Origin: a virus
Virus record (IMG/VR): IMGVR_UViG_3300005336_000008
DNA length: 56,024 nt
Strand: one strand, 5' to 3'
In this document: piece after piece, positions 9,445 through 56,024 of the stretch
Layout of the letters: each line of letters begins with the position of its first letter
Numbering within the stretch: the stretch's first letter is position 1
The notes under the pieces: model-generated
What the model was told of the DNA's origin: nothing
The model's input: the letters and a program-made list of their open reading frames with translations, nothing else
The model's database searches: none
Program-made: the position numbers and the translations under genes

Positions 9445-9528
9445 TGCCGACGGAGGGACTCGAACCCTCAATCCTTTACAGGCGTCAGATTTTAAGTCTG
9501 ATGTGTATACCAATTCCACCACGTCGGC
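9445..9528 (-). tRNA. tRNA-Leu, anticodon UAA, type II with a long variable arm. No CCA is encoded.
   Basis: I folded the cloverleaf by hand. The acceptor stem is GCCGACG/CGTCGGC. The anticodon stem is TCAGA/TCTGA with loop CTTAAAA. The T arm is GAGGG-TTCGAGT-CCCTC. The D loop contains GG. Length is 84 nt. Confidence 0.9.
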
Positions 9529-24360: not shown

Positions 24361-24771
24361 TCATTCTTCCTCAAAATGACTAAATGGTGGTTCGTCCACA
24401 ACTCGGTATTTGCGGCTAATCTTCACTAGAGCAAAATTATTGAATTCATGTGGAAGCCCTAAAGCCAACATAATTGATTCAGCTACTTCTTCCCTTGTCC
24501 ATCTATGTTTCCCTTTGAGAATATTAGCGATTGTATGATAAGAGACATTCGCATGATCGGCAAGGGCATAAATTGAGCCATTGTTATCCTTGTATGTTTG
24601 AATGAAAGGAACCAAACAATTTGTCTGAACAAATAGACCGCTATATGTTAAACGATGATGATTACCTTTAGGACGTTCAGCATTCTTAATCTTAGTTTTG
24701 AGATTGCGAATTTCTTGATTGATAAAAACTCGCATATTCTCTAACTGAGCTAAACGTTCGTCGTCTGTCAT
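24361..24771 (-). CDS. Putative helix-turn-helix DNA-binding protein
   Basis: 136 aa. An N-terminal coiled coil is followed by YALADHANVSYHTIANILKGKH, which is HTH-like. Confidence 0.45.
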   Translation of the reverse strand: MTDDERLAQLENMRVFINQEIRNLKTKIKNAERPKGNHHRLTYSGLFVQTNCLVPFIQTYKDNNGSIYALADHANVSYHTIANILKGKHRWTREEVAESIMLALGLPHEFNNFALVKISRKYRVVDEPPFSHFEEE

Positions 24772-25187
24772 GGAGCAGGATAAGTCTTAAGCTGATCGAG
24801 TGCCTCAGGGAGATACATCATTTGTGAAACGAATCCTCTAGCAAGAGTAGTTCTAGGATCGGTATAAAACACATTATTGATACTCGCATGAATCAATGCA
24901 GTAGCACAACAAGCACAAGGAACAGCAGCAACAAAATTTCCAGACTTACGAGCGATGCCAGCAATATAAACGCAAGCTCCATCTAACTTACCACGCTTAT
25001 GTCGTAAGTTGAAAAGTGCATGAAGCTCTGCGTGCATAGAATACAACTGACGCATCCTCCACGTTCCAGAATGCTGAAAACCTTTAGCAATAATTTCACC
25101 ATTCTGTACTACTACACAACCCATCATATAACGCTTATGCGTTGAACGCTCTGCAACCTTAATCGCTTCTGTCATGAACTCACTCAT
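24768..25187 (-). CDS. dCMP / cytidine deaminase-fold zinc enzyme
   Basis: It has the HAELHAL and PCACCATAL zinc-binding motifs. 139 aa. Confidence 0.85.
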   Translation of the reverse strand: MSEFMTEAIKVAERSTHKRYMMGCVVVQNGEIIAKGFQHSGTWRMRQLYSMHAELHALFNLRHKRGKLDGACVYIAGIARKSGNFVAAVPCACCATALIHASINNVFYTDPRTTLARGFVSQMMYLPEALDQLKTYPAP

Positions 25188-28927: not shown

Positions 28928-29155
28928 CTAACACCATCGAGATTGCCAATTCGGAGTTTTGGTTAAACACTCATTACATAACCATTCAACTCTGATTGTT
29001 TGATGTTCTGAATGCTTTAATGTAATCTGAGTGCAAAGTCTACGCATTCCACAATCATCACAATACAATCTATGCCGTGGAGATTCATCGTGAATCTTTA
29101 CAAGATTGTATGCTTCAATTTTTAACATCAAATTCTGTCTTTTGTGATGAATCAT
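28928..29155 (-). CDS. Small Cys-rich (zinc-binding) protein
   Basis: 75-aa ORF with CDDCG...CNEC. The start is uncertain, with an alternative ATG at 29128. Confidence 0.5.
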   Translation of the reverse strand: MIHHKRQNLMLKIEAYNLVKIHDESPRHRLYCDDCGMRRLCTQITLKHSEHQTIRVEWLCNECLTKTPNWQSRWC

Positions 29156-29312
29156 TTAACTTTACAAAGTACTCTCGAATTCGTAAAACAATACAATCTT
29201 CTTCATGTTCCTCAGGCCAACGACCACAGAAGATGCACCAATTTGATTCATATCCAACATAGATATGATTTTCGATTACTTCCTTAAGTAATGCATCTGC
29301 ATCAGTCATCAA
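29115..29312 (-). CDS. Hypothetical protein
   Basis: 65-aa ORF in the same-strand array. Confidence 0.5.
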   Translation of the reverse strand: MMTDADALLKEVIENHIYVGYESNWCIFCGRWPEEHEEDCIVLRIREYFVKLNDSSQKTEFDVKN

Positions 29313-29563
29313 ATTCTATCCTTATGAATAAGATAGAGATTTGTGTTATGTGCCTTAACGATGATTTTGTCTGCATGCTCTCGACCCCACGAATTATTCT
29401 TTAATGCGAAATTGATTCCATCTGCACGATGACCTAAACCTGCATATTCAATTCCTGGCGCATCGGAATTCATTAATGCATCAATCATAGTCCTAAGCTT
29501 AGGCTCACGCTTCATACTTATAGGTCTATCACTGATTGACGGGGAAAGGGCTTCTTGTTCCAC
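29309..29563 (-). CDS. Hypothetical protein
   Basis: 84-aa ORF. The start is uncertain, with an alternative ATG at 29515. Confidence 0.5.
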   Translation of the reverse strand: MEQEALSPSISDRPISMKREPKLRTMIDALMNSDAPGIEYAGLGHRADGINFALKNNSWGREHADKIIVKAHNTNLYLIHKDRI

Positions 29564-29870
29564 CGATTTTTTCTCCTGTTACCACGCTTTCAAACCAGTA
29601 CACACATGGTATTCTTTCAACCTGTGAAGGATCAGTTGGAAAATCTTTACACTGATTTGGACGATCTTCATAAATACTACAACGCTTCTCTTCTGTGAGT
29701 TTTGGGCAGGGATGAATGATTGGTAACCAGGTGATTCCATCTTTTGGTAATCCTCTCGCTTCAATCCAATCAGGATCATTTTGTGAAAAGTCAATTTGGA
29801 TAGGATGCGTTAAAGCTTCGCAGCAATAACCGCATCCGTCACATTCTCCATGCCTTACCCAATCAGACAT
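29529..29870 (-). CDS. YkgJ-family (CxxCxxCC) zinc/iron-chelating cysteine-cluster protein
   Basis: It has the CDGCGYCCE motif near the N-terminus and further conserved Cys residues. 113 aa. Confidence 0.65.
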   Translation of the reverse strand: MSDWVRHGECDGCGYCCEALTHPIQIDFSQNDPDWIEARGLPKDGITWLPIIHPCPKLTEEKRCSIYEDRPNQCKDFPTDPSQVERIPCVYWFESVVTGEKIGGTRSPFPVNQ

Positions 29871-30613
29871 AATTCAATAAGGGGTACAAGTATTCACTTT
29901 CGTAGTCGTAGGCTGACCCTACGTTTTACTTGTGTGTATACTGTACCCCTTATTCAATTATGAGGTTTGTAGTGTGCGCGGCCTACGTTAAATACAATGA
30001 GTACATATAATATTATCATACCCATTTAGCTACGAGTTTGCCGTAAGTAGCTACTGTCGCACTACTTATTTTCTCACGATTTGCCACTTCGTGACACACA
30101 CTACATTTTTGAGCTACGTTTACCTACATTCTATTACTTGCGTGCTTTCATAGAATGTAACCACCCTTCCCAACCTGCAATTTCCACTATCTCACACGAT
30201 AGTCCTCAACGTAGCTCAATGAGATAGTCGAACCTAGCTTTGCCCCCGGAGGAAAATTCAGGAGATACTAGGTTATCTCTTGATAATCTCCTAGACAAAG
30301 ATCGACTATCTCATTCAACTACGTAATTAACTTACAGAGTGAGCGGTATCGTGTTTAACTCTGTAAGCCCCGAGGAATCTTCTGTTCCTCGGCTTAGTAG
30401 TGACGCATTTCCTGCTTAGACTTAATAGAAAAGAAATCCCGAGCAAAAGCTCACTCATCAAAGGATTTTTCTGAGCTTTTCTATCAGTATCTTACAGGTT
30501 GCTCCGCTCTCTACTAAATCAGTAGACTTTCATCTACTATTAAGTGCTAGTGGACGGGAGGAACACTAGCACTTAATAGTAGATACGGTCGTTAGACCGT
30601 ATCTACTAATTAC
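29871..30613 (-). other. 743-bp ORF-free, hairpin-dense non-coding locus. It could be a structured RNA or a replication/regulatory region.
   Basis: There is no ORF of 60 aa or more on either strand, and I found no start codon preceded by an SD. It holds at least 9 stem-loops, including a perfect 20-bp stem at 30533..30552/30564..30583. Confidence 0.6.
30212..30322 (-). ncRNA. Copy 1 of a conserved-base long hairpin element
   Basis: The sequence is TAGCTC-AATGAGAtagtcga...tcgactaTCTCATT-CAACTAC. The 14-bp stem is 30218..30231/30302..30315. Confidence 0.4.
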
Positions 30614-30991
30614 TTACTTGCTCTGAGCCGCGCGAGCCTCAGCAACCTTCTTCGTGTTAATAACGAAAAGCTTCTCGGAAAGGACAACGCGCTCCTCACC
30701 CTTCTTACCATTCGTCTCCTGCTTAACACGAACCTGCACATCAGTACCACCAGGAATAACAAGCTGACCAGTTTCGTCATTAACCTTCTTGCGAGCGTTA
30801 TCAAGAGCGGTCTTAATAACCTTCGCAGGCTTACCAGCGAAACTACCAGCAGTTAGATCAACCTCACGACCAAGCTCTCCACTTGCAAGGAAATCCGAAA
30901 TGTACTCACCTGCGTTAGTCTTGCTGCGAGTCGATCCAAGAATTCCAGTAATGTCATCAAGTGAAAGGCCAGTATCAGAAGCAGTTGCCAT
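30614..30991 (-). CDS. Abundant-looking early protein of unknown family (paralog A, 125 aa)
   Basis: It is about 70% identical to 35992..36363 by my manual alignment. Its codon usage is GC3-rich compared with its neighbours. Confidence 0.75.
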   Translation of the reverse strand: MATASDTGLSLDDITGILGSTRSKTNAGEYISDFLASGELGREVDLTAGSFAGKPAKVIKTALDNARKKVNDETGQLVIPGGTDVQVRVKQETNGKKGEERVVLSEKLFVINTKKVAEARAAQSK

Positions 30992-30997
30992 TTTTTA

Positions 30998-31453
30998 TTA
31001 CTCTCCTTTTGTTGCCCTGCGTTTTGATTTTTCTAGATTTACTACCCGACTCTCGAAATTACTTAGGGCCGTTGTTACATCAATACCTCCTAGTAATCTT
31101 TCTAGCTCTTGAATCCGTGCCTCCAGCATAGCATAGTCGGGCTTAGGTGTCAAGTCTTTGTCATTACCGTCGAGCCACCCTGATACGTCCCACTTTTCTG
31201 GCAAACCATGTAAGACAATAACTGTATCAGCACCACGACCGCCACGCTGTAAAAATTGAATTGCGTTGTGACGTTCTAACGCTTTTCGGACAGAGCCATA
31301 GTAAGTTCTACTAATTCCAGTTGCTTCCCAAGCTTCACCATATGATCCTGCAAAAACTCGAGCCTTATTACCTGACTCCAATACCTGAGTTCGTGCTCGA
31401 TCATCTAAGGCGTTAAACATTGTAATGCAATGATGTACAAATGTGTCAGTCAT
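30998..31453 (-). CDS. Hypothetical protein, possibly a winged-helix domain plus a C-terminal coiled coil. I moved the start to the ATG at 31453.
   Basis: The track gives 30998..31477. The ATG at 31453 gives MTDTFVHH... and a short overlap with the upstream stop. Confidence 0.55.
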   Translation of the reverse strand: MTDTFVHHCITMFNALDDRARTQVLESGNKARVFAGSYGEAWEATGISRTYYGSVRKALERHNAIQFLQRGGRGADTVIVLHGLPEKWDVSGWLDGNDKDLTPKPDYAMLEARIQELERLLGGIDVTTALSNFESRVVNLEKSKRRATKGE

Positions 31454-31847
31454 TGTTCGTGTTATGAGCAAGACCATCCAGAAAATCCCAACGGCACATT
31501 TCTACACCATTTACAATTGCCGTTACTCTCTCTGGCCCTTTGTCCTGCATTAGAATACCAAGACAATTTTCACCCTGAGAACAAATGCCGGACATTTGAA
31601 CATTTGTGCTTTCACATTCGAGACATTTATCAGGAAAGGAAGCTTCTGGATCTGTTTCAGAAGTATAACCTTTTTCACAAGAATTAATCGCGCCGCAATT
31701 CAGACAGCGATTATTGATATGATCTTTCTTAAACCAAGAATCAAAATCTCTTGTGTCTTTAGGCTTTCTTGCTCTACTTCCTTTTGGTGGATCAGGTGTT
31801 TCAATTAGTGCTTCAAGAAAATCAAGATCATCAAGCGGAGTTGGCAT
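31446..31847 (-). CDS. Cys-rich protein with an N-terminal DLDFLEALI motif
   Basis: 133-aa ORF with several CxxC pairs. It shares an N-terminal motif with 22389..22634. Confidence 0.55.
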   Translation of the reverse strand: MPTPLDDLDFLEALIETPDPPKGSRARKPKDTRDFDSWFKKDHINNRCLNCGAINSCEKGYTSETDPEASFPDKCLECESTNVQMSGICSQGENCLGILMQDKGPERVTAIVNGVEMCRWDFLDGLAHNTNND

Positions 31848-32121
31848 CTACAACCAACCTGCTTCTAAGATTTTCCAAAGAAACGCGGGTCATAGGAATA
31901 AAGTCCCCCACAACCGTAAACACATAGTCAGTTCCATTCTCGCAATTCTTAACGAGAAAAGTGCGACCATTCAAGATCACACTATTCTTGCCACTCTCAA
32001 TTGCAGAAATCATCTGCTCTGTAAACGGATGGAACCAACTAATCAACGTAGTCTTGGTTGAAGTAGTCTCAAGAATATTCTGAGCCTCTTCTGCGGTCAT
32101 TGCACGACCACGCTTTTCCAC
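31831..32121 (-). CDS. Hypothetical protein with a GTG start
   Basis: AGGAGGTG lies 5 nt upstream of the GTG at 32121. It is the first gene behind the promoter at 32170..32198. Confidence 0.6.
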   Translation of the reverse strand: MEKRGRAMTAEEAQNILETTSTKTTLISWFHPFTEQMISAIESGKNSVILNGRTFLVKNCENGTDYVFTVVGDFIPMTRVSLENLRSRLVVDANSA

Positions 32122-32169
32122 TTTTACACCTCCTAAAAATTCGCGGTTGTTAAATCCGACGGCTCAAAT

Positions 32170-32198
32170 AGCATAGCATAGATGCTCAGGAAAGTCAA
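32170..32198 (-). promoter_or_regulatory. Sigma70-like promoter, TTGACT-N17-TATGCT, with a TGc extended -10
   Basis: The -35 is at 32198..32193 and overlaps the upstream stop codon. The -10 is at 32175..32170. Confidence 0.55.
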
Positions 32199-32704
32199 GA
32201 GGCAAAAGCTACCAACATGAAATCTTGATTATCCTCAGCAATCCTATTAGCCTCAATCTCGTACAAATTTCCTTTGTACCTTCGGCCATGTTCACCATCA
32301 ACAGCCTTGTAATCCGCGTGATGCCACAATGTAATATCTTTGCCTGTCTCTTTAGCCCATTTTTCTGATTGCATACAATGAGCCAATTCGTGCCAAAGTG
32401 TATTACTCGTTTCGGCAGCTTCACGCTCTTGGTCTACTGTAATTTTATGGTGCTGTTTCGTATTTCGATGAGTACCGTATGTCCAGCCTTTGCCACCTTT
32501 ACCCCAACTTCTACCACGACCACGTTCTCTAACTGCTCGCGCAGTTGCGGTCATGTAGCGAATATGAACTGGCATCTTAATGCCTAGTTTATCAATAGCT
32601 TCTAGAATAGCATCTTGATCTAGATACCATCCGGCTCTTGCCTGCTCACCTGTGCATTGAAGTCTATTGAGATTTAGAATATCGTCTAGTTCCATAATAT
32701 TCAT
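32195..32704 (-). CDS. HExxH zinc metallopeptidase-like protein, SprT-like. I moved the start to the ATG at 32704.
   Basis: It carries the LWHELAHCMQ motif. The ATG at 32704 forms an ATGA overlap with the upstream gene, whereas the track starts the ORF at 32728. Confidence 0.55.
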   Translation of the reverse strand: MNIMELDDILNLNRLQCTGEQARAGWYLDQDAILEAIDKLGIKMPVHIRYMTATARAVRERGRGRSWGKGGKGWTYGTHRNTKQHHKITVDQEREAAETSNTLWHELAHCMQSEKWAKETGKDITLWHHADYKAVDGEHGRRYKGNLYEIEANRIAEDNQDFMLVAFAS

Positions 32705-32892
32705 GTTTGCTTTGCACACGCCTGACAATGAATATTGAGTTTAACGTCATGTACGCAACTCAATTCAGATTTAGGACGACTACCGAATTTCAACCACCAA
32801 CCAACAGACTTATAAACCATGCGTTTGTCGATTGTTACAATTGCTAGAGATTTACGATGTTCATCCATTATGTGCCTCGTTCCAAAGCTCAC
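32701..32892 (-). CDS. Hypothetical protein
   Basis: 63-aa ORF in the same-strand array. Confidence 0.5.
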   Translation of the reverse strand: MSFGTRHIMDEHRKSLAIVTIDKRMVYKSVGWWLKFGSRPKSELSCVHDVKLNIHCQACAKQT

Positions 32893-33112
32893 TAATTGGA
32901 TACAAGTCTACATCTGGCGAACATGCATTTAGGAATCTAATAGGATCGAATCTTTCAGGATTGTCTCTCTTAAAAGAATCTGCAAAATCAATTGCAAGTT
33001 CACAAAGCAAGCCGCGCATTACAACTTGCAAATGATCGTTTGAAGTTGTGGGGAACTGATCGCGGATCTTCTTTGCAACTAAATTGTAAGTTGCTTTATG
33101 GTGCGTTGCCAT
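32861..33112 (-). CDS. Hypothetical protein
   Basis: 83-aa ORF in the same-strand array. Confidence 0.55.
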   Translation of the reverse strand: MATHHKATYNLVAKKIRDQFPTTSNDHLQVVMRGLLCELAIDFADSFKRDNPERFDPIRFLNACSPDVDLYPISELWNEAHNG

Positions 33113-33260
33113 CGTTAATTTCCTTTAAGAGTTCCAACATTTGCTCATATGTACTACATTCATGTTCCTCACCATTAACCATATCTACCAATACATAAGT
33201 TGGTTCCGTAACGTTGATCTTCTGAATAATGCGATACAATTCTACTTCAAGTGTAGGCAT
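33096..33260 (-). CDS. Small ORF (54 aa), below the track cutoff
   Basis: GGAGGA lies upstream of the ATG at 33260. The sequence is MPTLEVELYRIIQKINVTEPTYVLVDMVNGEEHECSTYEQMLELLKEINDGNAP. Confidence 0.45.
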   Translation of the reverse strand: MPTLEVELYRIIQKINVTEPTYVLVDMVNGEEHECSTYEQMLELLKEINDGNAP

Positions 33261-33451
33261 TATTCCTCCGAAAATCTAATGCCTGCTAGTGGCATCTTTA
33301 CAGACGGCGACCAGATATCAGACGGATTATCTCTTTGTGAGATTGTAAGCACACCATTGTGTAGTCTAACTGCAATTCTGCGCTCAAAAGCGTTTGTAGT
33401 ATCGTACCACACGGCGCTAACCTTCTGCAAGTGTTCAATCTCTTTAAACAT
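33260..33451 (-). CDS. Hypothetical protein. I trimmed the start to the ATG at 33451.
   Basis: The track gives 33260..33511. The internal ATG gives MFKEIEHLQ... and a short overlap with the upstream stop. Confidence 0.5.
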   Translation of the reverse strand: MFKEIEHLQKVSAVWYDTTNAFERRIAVRLHNGVLTISQRDNPSDIWSPSVKMPLAGIRFSEE

Positions 33452-33680
33452 AAGGATCGATTCTAGTAGTGTATTGATTGATCGGAATGAAAGAGACAAC
33501 CATTGCCTCATTCATTGGTACAACTACGTACCTCTTATCCCTCGGTTCATAATCAGGCCAACCTTTTGCTCGAAATGCAATCCGCACAATTTCATCGGCC
33601 GGAGTATCTGCGTCTGCTTCAACAACGATCGGCCAATTCCTCACAGTAACCATATCATTGCGCCAGACTATGAACTTCAT
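33444..33680 (-). CDS. Hypothetical protein
   Basis: 78-aa ORF with GGAGGATAAA upstream of the ATG. Confidence 0.6.
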   Translation of the reverse strand: MKFIVWRNDMVTVRNWPIVVEADADTPADEIVRIAFRAKGWPDYEPRDKRYVVVPMNEAMVVSFIPINQYTTRIDPYV

Positions 33681-33681
33681 T

Positions 33682-33858
33682 TTATCCTCCGTTCAAACAA
33701 GAATAGTATTCGTAATCACTAGCTTTGTGTACGATTCCATTATATGCTACTGTTTTGCATTCGTCCTTGCGTCTATCATTTTGTATCCCAATAATTTGTG
33801 TTTCCATCGCAACTAAGATGAACGCAAGAATCGCGGCCGCTACCAGGAATCTTAACAC
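33682..33858 (-). CDS. Small membrane ORF (58 aa, GTG start), below the track cutoff
   Basis: GGGAGG lies upstream of the GTG at 33858. It has a hydrophobic N-terminus (LRFLVAAAILAFILVA). Confidence 0.4.
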   Translation of the reverse strand: MLRFLVAAAILAFILVAMETQIIGIQNDRRKDECKTVAYNGIVHKASDYEYYSCLNGG

Positions 33859-33872
33859 ATCACCTCCCTGGT

Positions 33873-33989
33873 TTAGAAGATGTATTCGATTAGTTCTTTA
33901 ATACCATAACCTACAAAGAACCAGAATACCATACATAGACCGATAATGCATACCCATGTTGCAAGTGTCATTGTGAATTGTGCTCTCAT
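33873..33989 (-). CDS. Small membrane ORF (38 aa)
   Basis: ATGA overlap with the upstream stop. The sequence is MRAQFTMTLATWVCIIGLCMVFWFFVGYGIKELIEYIF. Confidence 0.35.
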   Translation of the reverse strand: MRAQFTMTLATWVCIIGLCMVFWFFVGYGIKELIEYIF

Positions 33990-34225
33990 AGATTCACTCT
34001 CCAAATCCTACCTCCCGTCAACGTGTGGGTCATTTCAATCTTTCCAGATTCAGTGAGACTATCGAGTGCATTATCGATATCATCTATATTGAGATTTGTG
34101 TATCTAAGAGAAGCTGCAATTTCCCACCAGTATGTCCAACGCATTGTGCCGAACAAGTGGTTATAGACGAATCGCTGCTTCTCACAAAGTGTGTCTGCAA
34201 AGTAAATGGCTTGGCTGTTAGTCAT
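33986..34225 (-). CDS. Hypothetical protein
   Basis: 79-aa ORF that is overlap-coupled. Confidence 0.55.
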   Translation of the reverse strand: MTNSQAIYFADTLCEKQRFVYNHLFGTMRWTYWWEIAASLRYTNLNIDDIDNALDSLTESGKIEMTHTLTGGRIWRVNL

Positions 34226-34437
34226 CGCATTGCACCAACACTTTCAATGTTATTGAGTGCATTGTCAATTCTATTGTATGCTGCAATTGCAAGATGCGCG
34301 CCGATAGAATTGTAAGCAAGCTTGATTCGGACGATATCTGAAATAGCATCCACGATCTGCGAATCTGTAGGATCGTAGAGAATTCTATTCTCTGCAAGTT
34401 CCTCTGCTTCGTCGATGATTTGATCGTACAGTGTCAT
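34222..34437 (-). CDS. Hypothetical protein
   Basis: 71-aa ORF that is overlap-coupled. Confidence 0.55.
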   Translation of the reverse strand: MTLYDQIIDEAEELAENRILYDPTDSQIVDAISDIVRIKLAYNSIGAHLAIAAYNRIDNALNNIESVGAMR

Positions 34438-34455
34438 TTGCGGTTGATTCCTTTC

Positions 34456-34641
34456 TTAGTCGTTCCACTTAATAGATTCCCAAATCTCAACAGCCTTATC
34501 ATTAGCTGTAGTCGATTCCATTGTTTCCTTCAAATCTTCTAGAATGTCGATTGCGGTTTTGTCCATTCTGCATGTCTCTGGATACTCATGAAAATATCTT
34601 TGAAGCAAACTCATTAGTGCTAGTGCTTCTGTATCGTTCAT
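34456..34641 (-). CDS. Hypothetical protein
   Basis: 61-aa ORF in the same-strand array. Confidence 0.5.
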   Translation of the reverse strand: MNDTEALALMSLLQRYFHEYPETCRMDKTAIDILEDLKETMESTTANDKAVEIWESIKWND

Positions 34642-34940
34642 GAATAGTATCTCCCGACGATAATTGTATCATTATCGGAATCGAATGTACCTCTATCTGT
34701 TCGTGGATACCTAACAAGGATTCCACTAAAGAAGGTATCAGAGTGATACCCGTCCCAAAGATCGAACGTACCATCTAGTCCACTAGTTGTAGTGAACTCC
34801 CCCAAATCGTAAACCTCACCTTTGTATCTAAAGAAGTAACCACCATCCTCTCCTAGATAGTCAAACTCTTTTCGCTCTTTTTCTGTCAACTCATATTCGC
34901 GGATGACTTCACGCGGCACGTTATTTGTAATGATTTTCAT
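34638..34940 (-). CDS. Hypothetical protein
   Basis: 100-aa ORF in the same-strand array. Confidence 0.6.
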   Translation of the reverse strand: MKIITNNVPREVIREYELTEKERKEFDYLGEDGGYFFRYKGEVYDLGEFTTTSGLDGTFDLWDGYHSDTFFSGILVRYPRTDRGTFDSDNDTIIVGRYYS

Positions 34941-34952
34941 TGTAGTTTACTC

Positions 34953-35147
34953 TCAGTGGGTAGGGCCAGATTCCCAATCTAGAAGAATCCTAACCAACTG
35001 TTCATCTTCCTGAATATCAGCAACTCGTTTACACTCAGACTCCGCATCTGCGAATGAGAGACCGTAGACGGTAATTTCACGTCTATTGTTCGCAGAGTCT
35101 ACGATTACACAATCGTAGCGAAATTTTAGAGGCTTATCGGGATGCAT
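34953..35147 (-). CDS. Hypothetical protein
   Basis: 64-aa ORF with AGGAGGTAAAA upstream of the ATG. Confidence 0.55.
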   Translation of the reverse strand: MHPDKPLKFRYDCVIVDSANNRREITVYGLSFADAESECKRVADIQEDEQLVRILLDWESGPTH

Positions 35148-35149
35148 TT

Positions 35150-35329
35150 TTACCTCCTTGCGTAAGAAACGTATTTGTTTCTTTCAGGATAGGCAGGGTA
35201 TAGAATCTCTAGAGGGATACCGTGCTTAATTCGAAGCGCCTCAACAAATTCGGCGGCTTCTGATTTACGCTTTTCAGCAGCAGGGCCATGTTTGTCTGGC
35301 GCATACGATTTGTAGTGTTCGCTTTTCAC
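35150..35329 (-). CDS. Small ORF (59 aa, GTG start), below the track cutoff
   Basis: GGAGGG lies 5 nt upstream of the GTG at 35329. The sequence begins MKSEHYKSYAPDKHGPAAEKRKSEAAEFVEALRIKHG... Confidence 0.45.
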   Translation of the reverse strand: MKSEHYKSYAPDKHGPAAEKRKSEAAEFVEALRIKHGIPLEILYPAYPERNKYVSYARR

Positions 35330-35348
35330 TTTATCCCTCCTTTCTGAT

Positions 35349-35446
35349 TAGCTCAATGAGACAATAAGTGGTTCCACTACTGACGCAGTTCGGGCTTTTA
35401 GTCAACCCGGCGATTTCGGGCTTAACTTATTGTCTCATTCAACTAC
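35349..35446 (-). ncRNA. Copy 2 of the conserved-base long hairpin element
   Basis: The sequence is TAGCTC-AATGAGAcaataagt...acttattgTCTCATT-CAACTAC. The 15-bp stem is 35355..35369/35425..35439. Confidence 0.4.
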
Positions 35447-35602
35447 CCGGTTTGTTTTCTCTGCTAGTCAACCGGGTGAATCCTAGCAGACTGGGTTTCT
35501 AGTTTAAAGACTTCAACCCACTGTTTCGGTCTAAATTCGGTAGCGGCTGTTACTTAGGTAGTAACATTTAATCGGCTCACCATGCCGAACCGCTACACTC
35601 TT

Positions 35603-35881
35603 TTACCAGCGTGAAGTTTCTAGTACGTAAAGCTTAGGATGGAATCGCTTATAATCGTTTGCGAATCCCTTATCAGGAAGATGCCTTCCCTCTACAGTGT
35701 AACGTGGGTCTAGAAGTGAACCGTGTGCCGTGCGGCTAACAGTCTTGATTCGCTTTTGCGTACAAGCCTTCTTAACAGCATTCTTGTTCGCAAGATTTGT
35801 AAAGCACAAATGCCCGCGACCGTAGCGCATCGAATCTGCAAGTTCGTTCACTTCTGCGTCAGTGAGTGTAAGCTCACTCAA
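35603..35881 (-). CDS. Hypothetical protein. I moved the start to the TTG at 35881.
   Basis: The track ORF (35603..35944) runs through the promoter at 35910..35938. GGGAGG lies 5 nt upstream of the in-frame TTG at 35881. Confidence 0.5.
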   Translation of the reverse strand: MSELTLTDAEVNELADSMRYGRGHLCFTNLANKNAVKKACTQKRIKTVSRTAHGSLLDPRYTVEGRHLPDKGFANDYKRFHPKLYVLETSRW

Positions 35882-35909
35882 AATAACCTCCCGTTCGATT
35901 TGTAGCTTA

Positions 35910-35938
35910 AGTGTAGCATACTTCGAAATGTTTGTCAA
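35910..35938 (-). promoter_or_regulatory. Sigma70-like promoter, TTGACA-N17-TACACT, with a TGc extended -10
   Basis: The -35 is at 35938..35933 and the -10 is at 35915..35910. The leader ATCGAACGGGAGG is shared with the promoter at 37349..37377. Confidence 0.6.
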
Positions 35939-35991
35939 GTACAATTAGCACGGTTGTTTAAAGGATGCCCGCGTGCAATTCATCCTATTTC

Positions 35992-36363
35992 TTACTTGCT
36001 TCCGTTCTGTGACGCACGGGCCTCAGCGACCAACTTAGTGTTGATGATGAAAAGCCGCTCAGAAACAACGACCTTCTTATCACCCTTAAGCCCGTTAGTC
36101 TCCTGCTTGATTCGAACCTGAATGTCGGTTCCACCCGGAATCGCAAGCGTTCCAGTCTCATCGGAAACCTTCTTGCGCGCAGAATCAAGAGCCATCTTAA
36201 CCTGCTTTGCAGACTTTCCGACGAACGAACCAGCACCCAAATCGACCTCCCGACCCATCTCACCCGAAGCGAGAAAATCCTTCACGTAGTCGGAAGAATT
36301 AAGCTTCGAACGAGTAGAACCAAGAACCTCATCGATCATGTCAAGTGAGAGCGTATCAGCCAT
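35992..36363 (-). CDS. Abundant-looking early protein of unknown family (paralog B, 123 aa)
   Basis: It is about 70% identical to 30614..30991. It has a strong RBS (AAAGGAGGTGA), its own promoter and a long structured leader. Confidence 0.75.
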   Translation of the reverse strand: MADTLSLDMIDEVLGSTRSKLNSSDYVKDFLASGEMGREVDLGAGSFVGKSAKQVKMALDSARKKVSDETGTLAIPGGTDIQVRIKQETNGLKGDKKVVVSERLFIINTKLVAEARASQNGSK

Positions 36364-36393
36364 TTAATTTTCACCTCCTTTCTTGCGGTTGAA

Positions 36394-36506
36394 GTTATTT
36401 GAGGGATAAACGCAACCGGATTATCAACCCAAAACTTAGCCCGGTCATCTTTTATCAGGGTTTGACTTATCGGCCGATCAAGCCTTACGTCTATCCCTCA
36501 AATAAC
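36394..36506 (-). promoter_or_regulatory. Long stem in the 5' leader of paralog B (15-bp perfect arms enclosing 83 nt)
   Basis: GTTATTTGAGGGATA (36394..36408) pairs with TATCCCTCAAATAAC (36492..36506). It lies between the promoter at 36528..36555 and the RBS. Confidence 0.5.
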
Positions 36507-36527
36507 CTCTCCTTTCATTATAGTTGA

Positions 36528-36555
36528 AGTGTATCAGACTGTGTTGGGAAGTCAA
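36528..36555 (-). promoter_or_regulatory. Sigma70-like promoter, TTGACT-N16-TACACT
   Basis: The -35 is at 36555..36550 and the -10 is at 36533..36528, about 158 nt upstream of the ATG at 36363. Confidence 0.5.
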
Positions 36556-36574
36556 CTATACTTAAGTCTAGGTT

Positions 36575-36751
36575 TTAGGGTTTCGGTACTGTGAGTCTAA
36601 ACTGTTCGTTTTGATTTACTGCGAGACGTTCGAATACTTGCATAACCTTGCGTAGTGAAATATTCTTGGGATCATACATATGCGTAATCTCCCAACCCTT
36701 CGGCGTTTTAGTCTCGATTGTGTAGAGTTCGTCCCAATCAGGGTATTCCAT
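36575..36751 (-). CDS. Small ORF (58 aa), which I prefer over the overlapping track ORF 36616..36807
   Basis: AGGA lies 5 nt upstream of the ATG at 36751. MEYPDWDELYTIETKTPKGWEITHMYDPKN... has protein-like composition. The competing frame is Arg/Leu/Ser-rich and has no RBS. Confidence 0.45.
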   Translation of the reverse strand: MEYPDWDELYTIETKTPKGWEITHMYDPKNISLRKVMQVFERLAVNQNEQFRLTVPKP

Positions 36752-36853
36752 CGTGATCCTTTCAGTGAGAGGGTATATTGTACCGACTCAGTGAGTGCAA
36801 AAGTCATTTTATTGAGTTAACTCTAAGAGTACTAGAGTCCGTTAGTATTACTA

Positions 36854-36887
36854 CTATATACTATATATATTATATAGTATTATATAG
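36854..36887. repeat. TA-rich quasi-palindrome: CTATATA twice, then TATATAG twice
   Basis: Read directly from the sequence. CTATATA is at 36854 and 36861. TATATAG is at 36871 and 36881. The region is intergenic. Confidence 0.7.
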
Positions 36888-37083
36888 GTCTATAGCCTCC
36901 TAGCTAAGACTTATACGTGCTATTGCGACCCTGTGACACTGTACGTACACTGGACGCCGTAGCGGTTTTGCTTGTTCTGATTAATACCAATTGCGGATAA
37001 TTCGGAGGTTACGCTTAATCTTTCGATGTGAAGGGTTATAACCCAGGAAGTACAGGAAACGATCCCACATGATTTACTCCTGT

Positions 37084-37317
37084 CTAGTTAAGCCACCACA
37101 TTTCGGCGGCGATCTTAGTGTCAGTAACAGGCTTACTGTTATTCAAGTGCTCTGCACACCTACGCTTAGTCTTGCCTCCCCCATTCTCGACCATCAGTAC
37201 GGGATTGGTACATTCGGCAACGTGGCACTTCTCAGTCTTGACGTGAATACAAAGCTGAGTATTAGCGGACGGACCGAATCGGCGCTTATTCATCAGACTA
37301 GACCGCGTGCGTGCCAT
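37084..37317 (-). CDS. Small basic Cys/His-containing protein
   Basis: 77-aa ORF with GGGAGGAAAATAA upstream of the ATG. It has its own promoter at 37349..37377. Confidence 0.6.
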   Translation of the reverse strand: MARTRSSLMNKRRFGPSANTQLCIHVKTEKCHVAECTNPVLMVENGGGKTKRRCAEHLNNSKPVTDTKIAAEMWWLN

Positions 37318-37348
37318 TTATTTTCCTCCCGTTCGATGTAGTAGATAG

Positions 37349-37377
37349 ATTGTAGCTTATGTGTGGGGTAGTGTCAA
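37349..37377 (-). promoter_or_regulatory. Sigma70-like promoter, TTGACA-N17-TACAAT
   Basis: The -35 is at 37377..37372 and the -10 is at 37354..37349. Confidence 0.6.
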
Positions 37378-37382
37378 GTAGA

Positions 37383-37415
37383 GGGAAGGGCCAATTTTGT
37401 GTTTTGGCCCTTCCC
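37383..37415 (-). terminator. 12-bp hairpin (GGGAAGGGCCAA / TTGGCCCTTCCC) after the first early gene
   Basis: Read directly from the sequence, with a 9-nt loop. It lies between the stop at 37426 and the next promoter. Confidence 0.5.
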
Positions 37416-37425
37416 CAACTTCGCA

Positions 37426-37695
37426 CTAGCCGTTATTGTAATCGTGGTCGAGTGTGATCGATTGAATCAGGCTACGCTTCTGCGCATTCTGGCTTGCGCG
37501 AGTGATACGCTTCGCGTGCTCATTCGGGGTACGTGTGCGGACGAATGGGATGCGAGTACCGTCGGGGAAGATCGAGACACATTCGCCGGATTTCGTGCCG
37601 GAGCCCTTCCAACGTTCTGACACTCGCCTGGTCGTAGAAGTAATGGCACCGAATGCCTTAGCATCGGCTGCATTCTGCATTCTTGCGTCTCGCAT
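37426..37695 (-). CDS. First early protein of the minus arm (89 aa, basic, GC-rich)
   Basis: GGGAGGCATC lies upstream of the ATG at 37695. Overlapping alternative frames look spurious. Confidence 0.6.
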   Translation of the reverse strand: MRDARMQNAADAKAFGAITSTTRRVSERWKGSGTKSGECVSIFPDGTRIPFVRTRTPNEHAKRITRASQNAQKRSLIQSITLDHDYNNG

Positions 37696-55800: not shown

Positions 55801-56024
55801 TCTTACAGGATCAACAGATTCAAAAATCCAACTTTGAGCAGCTAACCAAAGATCTTACTTTCTTGCAGAAGCGTGGTGTTGATCCAAAAACAATTCAAAA
55901 CATTTTAGGTCAGGGAAGTGCTGCATTGCCATTCTTAGAAGGAATCCGACAAGGTACTCCAAAACAACAAAATGAGTTTATCAAGAATCTTAAAGGCAGA
56001 AATGCTGCACTTCTTGATGCTTTG
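52848..56024 (+). CDS. Tape measure protein, N-terminal 1059 codons. It continues at 1..399 through the circular junction.
   Basis: The frame is open from the ATG at 52848 to the window end, so there is no stop and the ORF is absent from the track. The sequence is a helical MAFRGYELNLMLRVQDRASSRL... followed by hydrophobic GAALIAGGVGVAASAAAAG segments. Confidence 0.85.
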   Translation, partial: MAFRGYELNLMLRVQDRASSRLRRLSHDIGGVNRAAQLQRSAGRLATQQTRNQLDMTKTLAQREALLAQHGTERLGTQSRLLRLKAQELTLTDRINRMSPGQMVSARGQASLKRLQAVQKDIIRTEELRRIAIRNNNTALADQLLLEQQIKREIEQQAIAQRAAEKAALAQRRARTLTHVGSAALIAGGVGVAASAAAAGSFANFNRLAVGAATQMRGVNEGFEQTVKIAGVVESSLLDLTRQFPAAADEMAQSIYDISSGMTFQIDRTSRLTETQQRYNQSLRILKLANQVAVAGNTDLNTATDVLITTFNNFDPAVQRPIKLLNELFAIVRFGKGTFAEFSPQIGRLAASARAAGQTLGEAGAGLAFLSQRMPLSQATTALTRIFQVIGRPEFTAGFEQLFKVSPFKEGTRQLRDLSDLMFIIEKQGPKLWKGFGKGSVDLQNVIKNITAAGQDLIKGTTGHTGLVSTEFSRKAITDFILGGKEYRKTVQDVIGTQGEFFRSLQAFRNQPGVQWQIAINQFKAFGIVIGQTVLPAILRFFDAINHLLDEFRDLSPRTQKMIGQFAAYGSIFLFVGGAITSVLGGLAILTVSLRTLGTTVGTEQGTGVLGRVSGLRVALSGLAAIGAISIILKTAWSGNATAMDFIQGAMLGAAAGSIFGPEGAIIGGVTVPVIMKWLSDRSKPKEELDYPHQLYEQYKSQGRFNFRWFWEAGPKNFSGFMKEWKADVARGKQIIARGQKDLNNFTFKIPGTNKSVFQNALVVPATTALNQVSNKNKNTTNSMLKNWQGLATQLTGLDLFSGVNQQMANAAVNVQTNLARALALGNTAQQRAAINAQIESDKRQVARLEKIPAAKRTANQAKILIQLYNDITQQRGRLEAMDNAAAAAQTKAANATKKHNAELERHKKAIERANNAYKTAERRVDALKLKFKQLKEQSLDQLRSAFGDIFGGPFMQGPIGQAFTGIASTLAGFGKTFPIPAQFILQDQQIQKSNFEQLTKDLTFLQKRGVDPKTIQNILGQGSAALPFLEGIRQGTPKQQNEFIKNLKGRNAALLDAL
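55905..56024. repeat. Terminal 120-bp direct repeat, identical to 1..120
   Basis: Exact match by direct comparison. Confidence 0.95.

Follow-up and report, generated by a model that had tools for sequence, protein, structure and literature searches.

The early arm of the window phage and its hairpins

The IMG/VR virus record IMGVR_UViG_3300005336_000008, here called the window and analysed over its whole length of 56,024 nucleotides, is a circularly assembled phage contig with a G+C content of about 42%. Bases 1-120 recur at 55905-56024, and JGI contig Ga0207707_10000268 is identical to the window. The intergenic gaps of its minus-strand arm contain three long hairpins, termed c1, c2 and c3, which are the subject of this analysis and represent a family of long RNA stem-loops in uncultured soil phages that had not been described before. 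The plus-strand arm carries the structural genes (terminase, portal, protease, major head and tail genes). The minus-strand arm starts with small open reading frames (ORFs) without assigned function, which are followed by an SNF2 helicase, a D5-type primase, PolA, and other genes for replication and nucleotide metabolism. This arm also codes for two proteins of 123-125 amino acids, paralog A (30614-30991, minus strand) and paralog B (35992-36363, minus strand), which match no Pfam or PHROG family. All three hairpins are found downstream of a promoter-like site on the minus strand (36528-36555; TTGACT, 16 nt, TACACT, with TG). This site is a consensus match only and would start the early transcript of the minus strand. 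The same layout is found in relatives.

The original prediction, made from the letters of the window, had described a two-copy family with hairpins at 30212-30322 and 35349-35446. Both copies exist at these positions with the sequence as described. The 14-mers at the base, GTAGTTGAATGAGA and TCTCATTGAGCTA(C/A), occur only at these two sites in the 56 kb, and the distal arms, tagtcga/tcgacta around 70 nt and caataagt/acttattg around 55 nt, show perfect complementarity. Their assignment to intergenic gaps of the early arm is also correct, the genes in this region being on the minus strand. The flanks had been considered identical and external to the stem. They are identical, but they are not outside the stem, as they pair on the minus strand (GUAGUU/AGCUAC, with one G-U).

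With this extension, c1 covers 30209-30324 on the minus strand (5′ arm 30324-30302, 3′ arm 30231-30209) and scores 76.3 bits with the covariance model R1 described below. It consists of an outer helix of 8 bp, a G·G mismatch (G30316 x G30217), an inner helix of 14 bp and a structured interior of 70 nt. The corresponding element c2 (35346-35448, minus strand, 77.3 bits) has the G·G at G35440 x G35354, an inner helix of 15 bp and a 55-nt interior, and the hairpin is followed after 8 nt by AAAGGAGGG, the ribosome-binding site for a gene that begins at 35329. On the minus strand, the stem of both elements thus has 5-8 bp, a 1x1 G·G mismatch and then 14-15 bp. The minus strand folds with -54.2 kcal/mol for c1 (z -7.1 versus shuffles) and -41.6 kcal/mol for c2 (z -6.1), while the plus-strand folds are weaker (-46.4 and -31.5 kcal/mol).

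The family is not restricted to two copies. A repeat scan revealed c3 (29867-29963, minus strand, 51.1 bits), which reads CAUAAUU-G-AAUAAGGGGUACA(G)...(U)UGUACCCCUUAUU-G-AAUUAUG. Compared to the base of c1 and c2, three pairs are changed on both sides (G-C to A-U twice, A-U to G-C), and the G·G is kept. The last three bases of c3 are the AUG (29870-29868) of a CxxCxxCC-domain gene. This gene has no Shine-Dalgarno sequence in any of the relatives, irrespective of whether the c3 hairpin is present (start at 29868-29870 in the window, about 5305 in L273, 7881 in L271; loci and contigs are designated by L numbers), and in all genomes with the c3 hairpin the start codon is hidden within the outer helix. 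The stems of the window members have 21-23 bp with one G·G mismatch, and c1, c2 and c3 are the only hairpins of this G·G architecture in the window. In the identical contigs, microdiversity amounts to 0 substitutions in c1, c2 and c3, which is uninformative.

As a separate observation, the 5′ arms (30324-30311, 35446-35433 and 29962-29949, minus strand) carry stop codons in all three frames (UAG, UGA, UGA). These stop codons survive the compensatory changes in c3 (UAA, UGA, UAA) and also those in most relatives.

Distribution and covariation in related phages

A degenerate two-arm pattern search yielded one true member in IMG/VR and eight in metagenomes; such matches were accepted as true because their distal arms, which the pattern left unspecified, are also complementary. 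The search of relatives with a covariance model, as proposed in the original prediction, was productive, and our model R1 retrieved additional copies, often two or three in tandem. By alignment of the SNF2 helicase, 76 IMG/VR loci from a clade of 55-60 kb phages were collected, and closer relatives were reached via homologues of paralog A. The combination of R1 with a motif-plus-pairing scan resulted in 29 members in 17 loci, which are soil-phage contigs. Every contig that carries a member is a relative of the window phage.

The consensus of the family is 5′-(A)CGUAGYU-G-AAUGAGAYAG[variable paired arm][interior 8-123 nt][arm′]CURUCUCAUU-G-ARCUACG(U)-3′. The outer helix has 5-12 bp and is followed by one G·G mismatch and an inner helix of 11-18 bp, resulting in stems of 21-27 bp. 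Conservation is highest in the outer helix (RUAGYU/ARCUAY) and at the G·G mismatch, whereas the distal arm is different in each copy. The interior is nearly missing in some members (8 nt in L182b, 13 nt in L146a, 14 nt in L085a), and no interior motif common to the paralogues was found. When Rfam was searched in E-value mode with 29800-30700, L080, L085 and L068, only sub-threshold noise from microRNA-like hairpins was obtained, and our literature search for the motif strings or for RNase III (ribonuclease III) sites with a G-G mismatch returned nothing relevant.

Two copies do not yet demonstrate compensatory change, which had been claimed for c1 and c2, but the 29 members do. In an arms-only alignment of these, 17 of the 21 pairs of the main stem show double changes and 93.4% of the cells are paired, a percentage which is inflated as members were partly picked for pairing, although matches derived from the pattern and the model were unselected on their distal arms. 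None of 500 shuffles has pairing as high, and no slid register comes near.

The type of the deviating pairs indicates which strand is folded. In the stems of 14 members, there are 295 Watson-Crick pairs, 30 G-U pairs on the sense strand, not a single A-C pair and 5 other mismatches (the G·G being uncounted). A palindrome in double-stranded DNA or an antisense RNA would give equal counts of G-U and A-C, and it is therefore the sense strand that folds. The folding molecule is sense-strand RNA or, less likely, sense-strand single-stranded DNA. This strand asymmetry leaves the DNA cruciform, which had been offered as an option, unsupported. On the other hand, the view that selection acts on structure and not on sequence has gained from the covarying pairs, from the ratio of G-U to A-C and from the intergenic position in the early arm.

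The G·G mismatch

We performed a sequence-free structure scan of 80 loci for hairpins in which a single 1x1 mismatch separates an outer helix (6 bp or more) from an inner helix (11 bp or more). This yielded 47 hairpins with G·G on the sense strand, distributed over 31 of the 80 loci, versus a single G·G on the antisense strand and 2-6 hairpins for each other mismatch type. The G·G hits span subfamilies with unrelated helix sequences (e.g. UCGUGAUCA-G-CAUG), and some subfamilies that are not of the c1 type also have the downstream strand described next.

A downstream strand allows a second fold

In 19 of the 29 members, a motif (RUAGCUC plus 0-4 nt) is found 5-110 nt downstream of the hairpin. 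This strand, termed A'', is a perfect complement of 11-16 nt to the 3′ outer arm. It includes the position of the mismatch, where the G is now opposite a C, and a few flanking bases beyond the 5′ arm. At least 11 contiguous pairs are formed in these 19 members versus 1.6% of shuffled downstream sequences. For c1, A'' (AACGUAGCUCAAA; 30108-30120, minus strand) is a perfect 12-nt complement of the 3′ lower arm including the mismatch G; it is located 88 nt downstream of the hairpin, and only 1 of 300 shuffles is as good. The helix between 3′ arm and A'' covaries as well: 88.8% of it is paired, with double changes at 8 pairs, and 0 of 500 shuffles reach this value. Examples are ACC/GGU in L084b, CCAU/AUGG in L085a, and GUAGUUC/GAACUAC in L146.

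The complete units are predicted to adopt two folds, either the extended hairpin or an inner hairpin coaxial with the A'' helix, which releases the 5′ outer arm. The stem has 22-32 bp in the A'' state. The two folds differ by 0.1-9 kcal/mol, and the A'' fold has the minimum energy in 5 of 10 units. In c1, ACGUAGUUG is the 5′ flap which the A'' fold would expose according to the model.

The remaining 10 members, including c2 and c3, have no A'' and still keep the G·G. They are either the first of two overlapping tandem copies or have a ribosome-binding site or start codon 0-25 nt downstream (c2, c3, L016, L153, L182b). In units in which a gene comes after A'', 13-18 nt separate A'' from the ribosome-binding site (L152, L180b, L180c, L084b, L085b). 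A'' resembles boxA in L080a only (GCUCUUCAACA) and mostly reads GCUCAAU otherwise; an N-like protein was not identified.

Genomic context and turnover

All members are intergenic, are oriented in the sense of the genes, and precede the start codons of unrelated genes. L271 and L269 have orthologues of c3, and in both of them the CxxC gene starts within the 3′ outer arm. Their inner arms are entirely different from those of the window, yet they are still paired, and L269 has another interior at the c3 site. In L003, the corresponding gap contains a tRNA gene and two ORFs, and in L273 it has an unrelated filling with a tRNA-like 3′ end. Genes for transfer-messenger RNA (tmRNA) were detected in L180 (8834-9130), L150 (7582-7917) and L181 (7595-7927), both by Rfam (RF00023, 79-85 bits) and by ARAGORN. 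They share the non-coding gap with the hairpins and directly precede them, in L180 at a distance of only 9 nt. The window itself has no tmRNA. From these comparisons, the elements are modular and dispensable, having conserved bases and fast-changing arms.

The two contigs L080 and L085 have another common feature. L080 (40-110) and L085 (320-385) share CCUCCCGUAAGG...GGGGAGG...CCUCCCCUUU, with a strong intrinsic terminator (-24 to -29 kcal/mol) at its end, some 27 nt ahead of the first hairpin in the array. This shared motif looks like an attenuator or the 3′ end of a small RNA; it has a weak, sub-threshold match to Chloroflexi-1 (25 bits).

Other hairpins and features of the window

The leader of paralog B had been proposed to contain a third element of the same architecture (36394-36506). 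A long hairpin is indeed located there and is like the family in form, but it is a separate element (36391-36509, minus strand). Its stem has 25 bp, with three sense-strand G-U pairs and no mismatch, and encloses 69 nt, and not 15 bp enclosing 83 nt as had been proposed. It is found about 10 nt past a sigma-70-like promoter. We rejected it as a member of the c1/c2 family because it has no R1 match at E<=5, its sequence is unrelated, and both the RUAGYU-G/G-ARCUAY base and the G·G are missing.

Directly after the stop codon of paralog A there are overlapping hairpins (30513-30608, minus strand) built from five TAGTAGAT/ATCTACTA units, with perfect stems of 14 bp and 21 bp that are mutually exclusive. 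They occur at the same site in L003, L269, L271 and L273, where the base AUCUACUAUU is kept and the distal stem is swapped, and represent a second family of the type "conserved base, variable arm". Perfect stems of at least 18 bp are common in the clade (94 sense versus 43 antisense). Paralogs A and B each head a stretch that ends in long hairpins. Homologues of these proteins are widespread in the clade (56 protein-database clusters, all unnamed). A single-protein scan of IMG/VR with paralog A gave no match.

Ten metagenome contigs which fit the DNA pattern (L044, L046, L047, L065, L069, L075, L095, L096, L101, L105) share ACAATGTTGAATAAGGCAT...ATGCCTTATTGAATTACAG, with a 10-bp stem in a UUGAAU/AUUGAA context as in the family. 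This L069-like group reaches only 21-24 bits and has an outer helix of 3 bp, and it was treated as unrelated or as a chance similarity.

An AT-rich palindrome of the TATATA type (36849-36882) is located in the divergent region between the two gene arms. It is a candidate for a replication origin or for a region with divergent promoters. Genes for nucleotide metabolism are found at 16791-17487, 24768-25187, 11513-11977 and 13947-16313. They comprise MazG, the N-terminal domain of a dATP/dGTP diphosphohydrolase, a dCMP deaminase, a circularly permuted YpsA SLOG protein, and PolA with an N-terminal UDG-like domain, a gene set that hints at modified DNA bases. The only Rfam 15 match at gathering level in the window is a tRNA (9445-9528). 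In a scan of about 60 ORFs, many of which match no family, there were no matches to RNA-processing enzyme, reverse transcriptase, RNA polymerase or integrase families, nor to transposase or HUH-nuclease families.

The window phage has no close cultured relative. A search of GenBank phage DNA with 29000-37500 gave no match, and tblastn with helicase, terminase and polymerase detected only relatives with less than 37% identity. The top helicase match in a genome collection is L184 (DASVXH010000085.1), a 1.5-kb contig in a metagenome-assembled genome of Candidatus Saccharimonadales with 40% identity, which is only a faint hint at the host.

Function of the hairpins

The best reading of the elements is that they are cis-acting sense-strand RNA on the early or middle polycistronic transcripts of a soil-phage clade with genomes of about 55-60 kb. 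The hairpins probably mark where long early mRNAs get cut or refolded. By analogy, we would see them as sites between cistrons for processing of the RNase III type, aided by a refolding strand, and assign to this a probability of roughly 40%. The stem of two helical turns would punctuate the long transcript and would be recognised and cut by a double-strand-specific endoribonuclease, with host RNase III being the default candidate. A host enzyme is economical because no phage RNA-processing enzyme is found among the ORFs that were scanned, many of which match no family. The G·G mismatch may set the register of cleavage or limit it. After the cut, or after strand exchange, the freed 3′ lower arm would pair with the downstream A'', which would place a perfect helix of 11-16 bp at the new 5′ end, with the ribosome-binding site following after 13-18 nt. 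In members without A'', the ribosome-binding site or start codon itself is 0-25 nt from the hairpin. Such events may influence stability or translation of the mRNA.

Several observations weigh against processing by RNase III. Cleavage is purely inferred. The scan of the genome collection returned only distant SNF2 helicases, which are too weak as matches to name a host with its RNase repertoire. To our knowledge, RNase III does not require a G·G mismatch. That this type is so strongly favoured above any other argues for a more specific reader. There is also an orthologue-like copy (L271 7487-7608) with C-G instead of G·G. The c3 interior is identical in 52 of 53 nt between the window and L271, although the flanking genes are only about 75% identical, and the interiors of L084a, L152 and L153 are also conserved, with compensatory change. 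A plain cleavage site is insufficient as an explanation for such conserved interiors. L003 and also L273, in which paralog A is 98% identical, are devoid of the stems. The elements are dispensable, since these close relatives do without them. Finally, the arrays of L080 and L085 directly follow strong intrinsic terminators. The strict G·G preference, the conserved orthologue interiors and the two-state design suggest that the elements are more than a generic RNase III site.

The G·G preference, which holds against all other mismatches and across subfamilies with unrelated helices, is what would be expected of a binding site for a specific phage or host RNA-binding protein, e.g. an antitermination signal similar to N/nut or put. 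The G·G would widen the groove and be the recognition feature, with the outer helix (RUAGYU/ARCUAY), the most conserved part of the element, providing sequence identity. The location in leaders and between early genes fits as well, and the copies of L085 and L080 are upstream of terminators that precede the next gene. We nevertheless consider a protein site rather unlikely. No candidate protein was found: a search by phylogenetic association gave adjacency-confounded hits only, and the sole associated family, paralog A (p=6e-4), is confounded by adjacency and by locus coverage. In addition, the stems far exceed known N, Rev and coat-protein sites in length, and A'', boxA-like only in L080, would be left unexplained. 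This strand is central to an alternative in which cleavage is not obligatory and the elements are switches that exchange strands during transcription. The extended hairpin would form first, and A'' would then take the place of the 5′ lower arm, which pairs imperfectly and has built-in weak points at G·G and U·G, so that a dumbbell with a free 5′ flap alters translation, decay or termination of neighbouring genes. Both mutually exclusive helices covary, the two states are nearly isoenergetic, and A'' swaps precisely the G·G and the U·G for C-G and reaches 2-5 nt past the first helix, as a toehold would; its position ahead of the ribosome-binding site in L152, L180b, L180c, L084b and L085b also points to a switch. 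A switch of this kind is unlikely, given that the G·G is kept in all 10 members without A'' (c2 and c3 among them), that neither state shows consistent pairing with the ribosome-binding site, and that a ligand or signal is not evident.

The conservation of interiors (c3 in L271, while arms and flanking genes diverge; the common interior of L084a, L152 and L153 with its compensatory change) could be understood if the stem were a scaffold or processing handle for small stable RNAs, with the interior being a cargo that is excised in the way that ribosomal RNA is released from its processing stems. The tRNA and tmRNA genes around the elements in relatives point in the same direction. This is quite improbable for a family with interiors between 8 and 123 nt, nearly absent in L182b, L146a and L085a, without a motif common to the paralogues and without an Rfam match. 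We also consider a role at the DNA level unlikely and rank it last. The hairpin might act in priming or initiation on the lagging-strand template while this is transiently single-stranded, the sense strand being this template if replication were to start near the divergent region at 36.85 kb, or it might be a recombination cassette similar to PeSL, with arms kept complementary by template-switch correction and not by selection on RNA. A mosaic hot spot separates paralog A from the CxxC gene, occupied by hairpins in the window and by tRNA-like sequence in L273 and L003, the arms change far faster than the c3 interior, and single-stranded DNA also tolerates G-T wobbles. However, correction by template switching would be expected to remove the G·G as well as the 30 G-U positions, and both persist. 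Moreover, A'' shows covariation in cis over varying distances, the position of the elements is linked to ribosome-binding sites or start codons, target-site duplications were not seen, and the ORF scan, in which many ORFs match no family, has no transposase, integrase or HUH-nuclease match.

It is possible, though doubtful, that the hairpins represent a new RNA class, in which the G·G helix is read by a factor and toehold strand exchange by A'' results in a nicked dumbbell at cistron junctions. Such a portable module might time or partition early expression, with fast-diverging distal arms that would keep the copies orthogonal.

Comparison with known systems

Some known elements are similar to the hairpins at first sight. 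Integron attC sites also have a conserved base, a variable paired distal part, a variable terminal structure, unpaired bases and a fold on one strand. In the family, GTTGAAT fits GTTRRRY, but at the 5′ end of the folding strand, and its partner is ATTGAGC and not an RYYYAAC R''; also, there is neither IntI or another tyrosine recombinase among the annotated ORFs nor a cassette structure. A miniature inverted-repeat transposable element or other small transposable element is contradicted by the unrelated interiors of the copies and by flanks without duplication, and a relation to repetitive extragenic palindromes with RAYT proteins fails on the defining features. An intrinsic terminator can be dismissed as a U-tract does not follow the 3′ arms (only in L141 is the A'' helix followed by UUAUCUUU), and a promoter in or just upstream of the hairpins was rejected since there is no consistent -35/-10 pair at a fixed distance. 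A tRNA-like origin was considered because of GGTTCGA in the c1 interior and the D-arm-like GTAGCTCA in A'', but ARAGORN and Rfam are negative and there is no GAGC partner after A''. An upstream ORF in the 5′ arm (AUGAGAUAG) is not conserved.

The family also has features in common with regulatory RNAs and cassettes of other phages. As in the P4 immunity RNA (seqA/seqB/seqC) and in three-segment attenuators, the 3′ lower arm is complementary to an upstream and to a downstream segment. P4 immunity acts in trans through the processed CI RNA and causes termination. In the family, all three segments are found within about 250 nt and in tandem arrays. PeSL cassettes of T4-type phages combine an early promoter with a terminator stem-loop (PMC2839356, PMC4122927). 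Similar to these, the hairpins are repeated intergenic motifs next to small novel early ORFs in plastic regions and have a patchy distribution among close relatives; they differ in having much longer stems and neither an associated promoter nor a U-tract. The early mRNA of phage SP82 is cut by RNase III of Bacillus subtilis, as summarised in PMC4838370 (references 19 and 20). The systems are alike in having conserved stem-loops in early transcripts and genes with strong Shine-Dalgarno sequences. The downstream product in SP82 is reportedly stabilised by a purine-rich 5′ sequence similar to a ribosome-binding site. In the window, c2 similarly has AGAAAGGAGGGAUAAAG 8 nt after the hairpin.

T7-like phages shape their early mRNAs by conserved intercistronic hairpins, and little of this kind is known for uncultured soil phages. 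The RNase III sites R0.3 to R1.3 of the T7 early mRNA are, like SP82, a precedent for the processing that we propose, and the original prediction had already likened the hairpins to them. This likeness holds in that several related sense-strand hairpins per genome, common to relatives, are found between early cistrons, with stems of about two helical turns (22-27 bp) and a non-canonical element near the expected cut site. It does not extend to sequence, and cleavage is only predicted for the family. The stems of T7 sites contain an internal loop and are closed by a small terminal loop, whereas the family has a single G·G, interiors of 8-123 nt and A''. We know of no T7-type site with a near-invariant G·G, a downstream competitor strand and interiors of this size.

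The family is an RNA structure supported by covariation, with a G·G at a fixed place in a helix of two turns and a conserved competitor strand that gives a second fold. The hairpins also mark a recombination-prone gap in which relatives have tRNA or tmRNA genes instead. If strand exchange is functional, the elements would be compact natural toehold switches within phage operons. Should the mismatch signal recognition or register to a double-strand RNase or an RNA-binding protein, this would be a determinant of a new kind, and its nearest analogy would be the mismatch motif in the lower stem of animal primary microRNA transcripts (pri-miRNAs).

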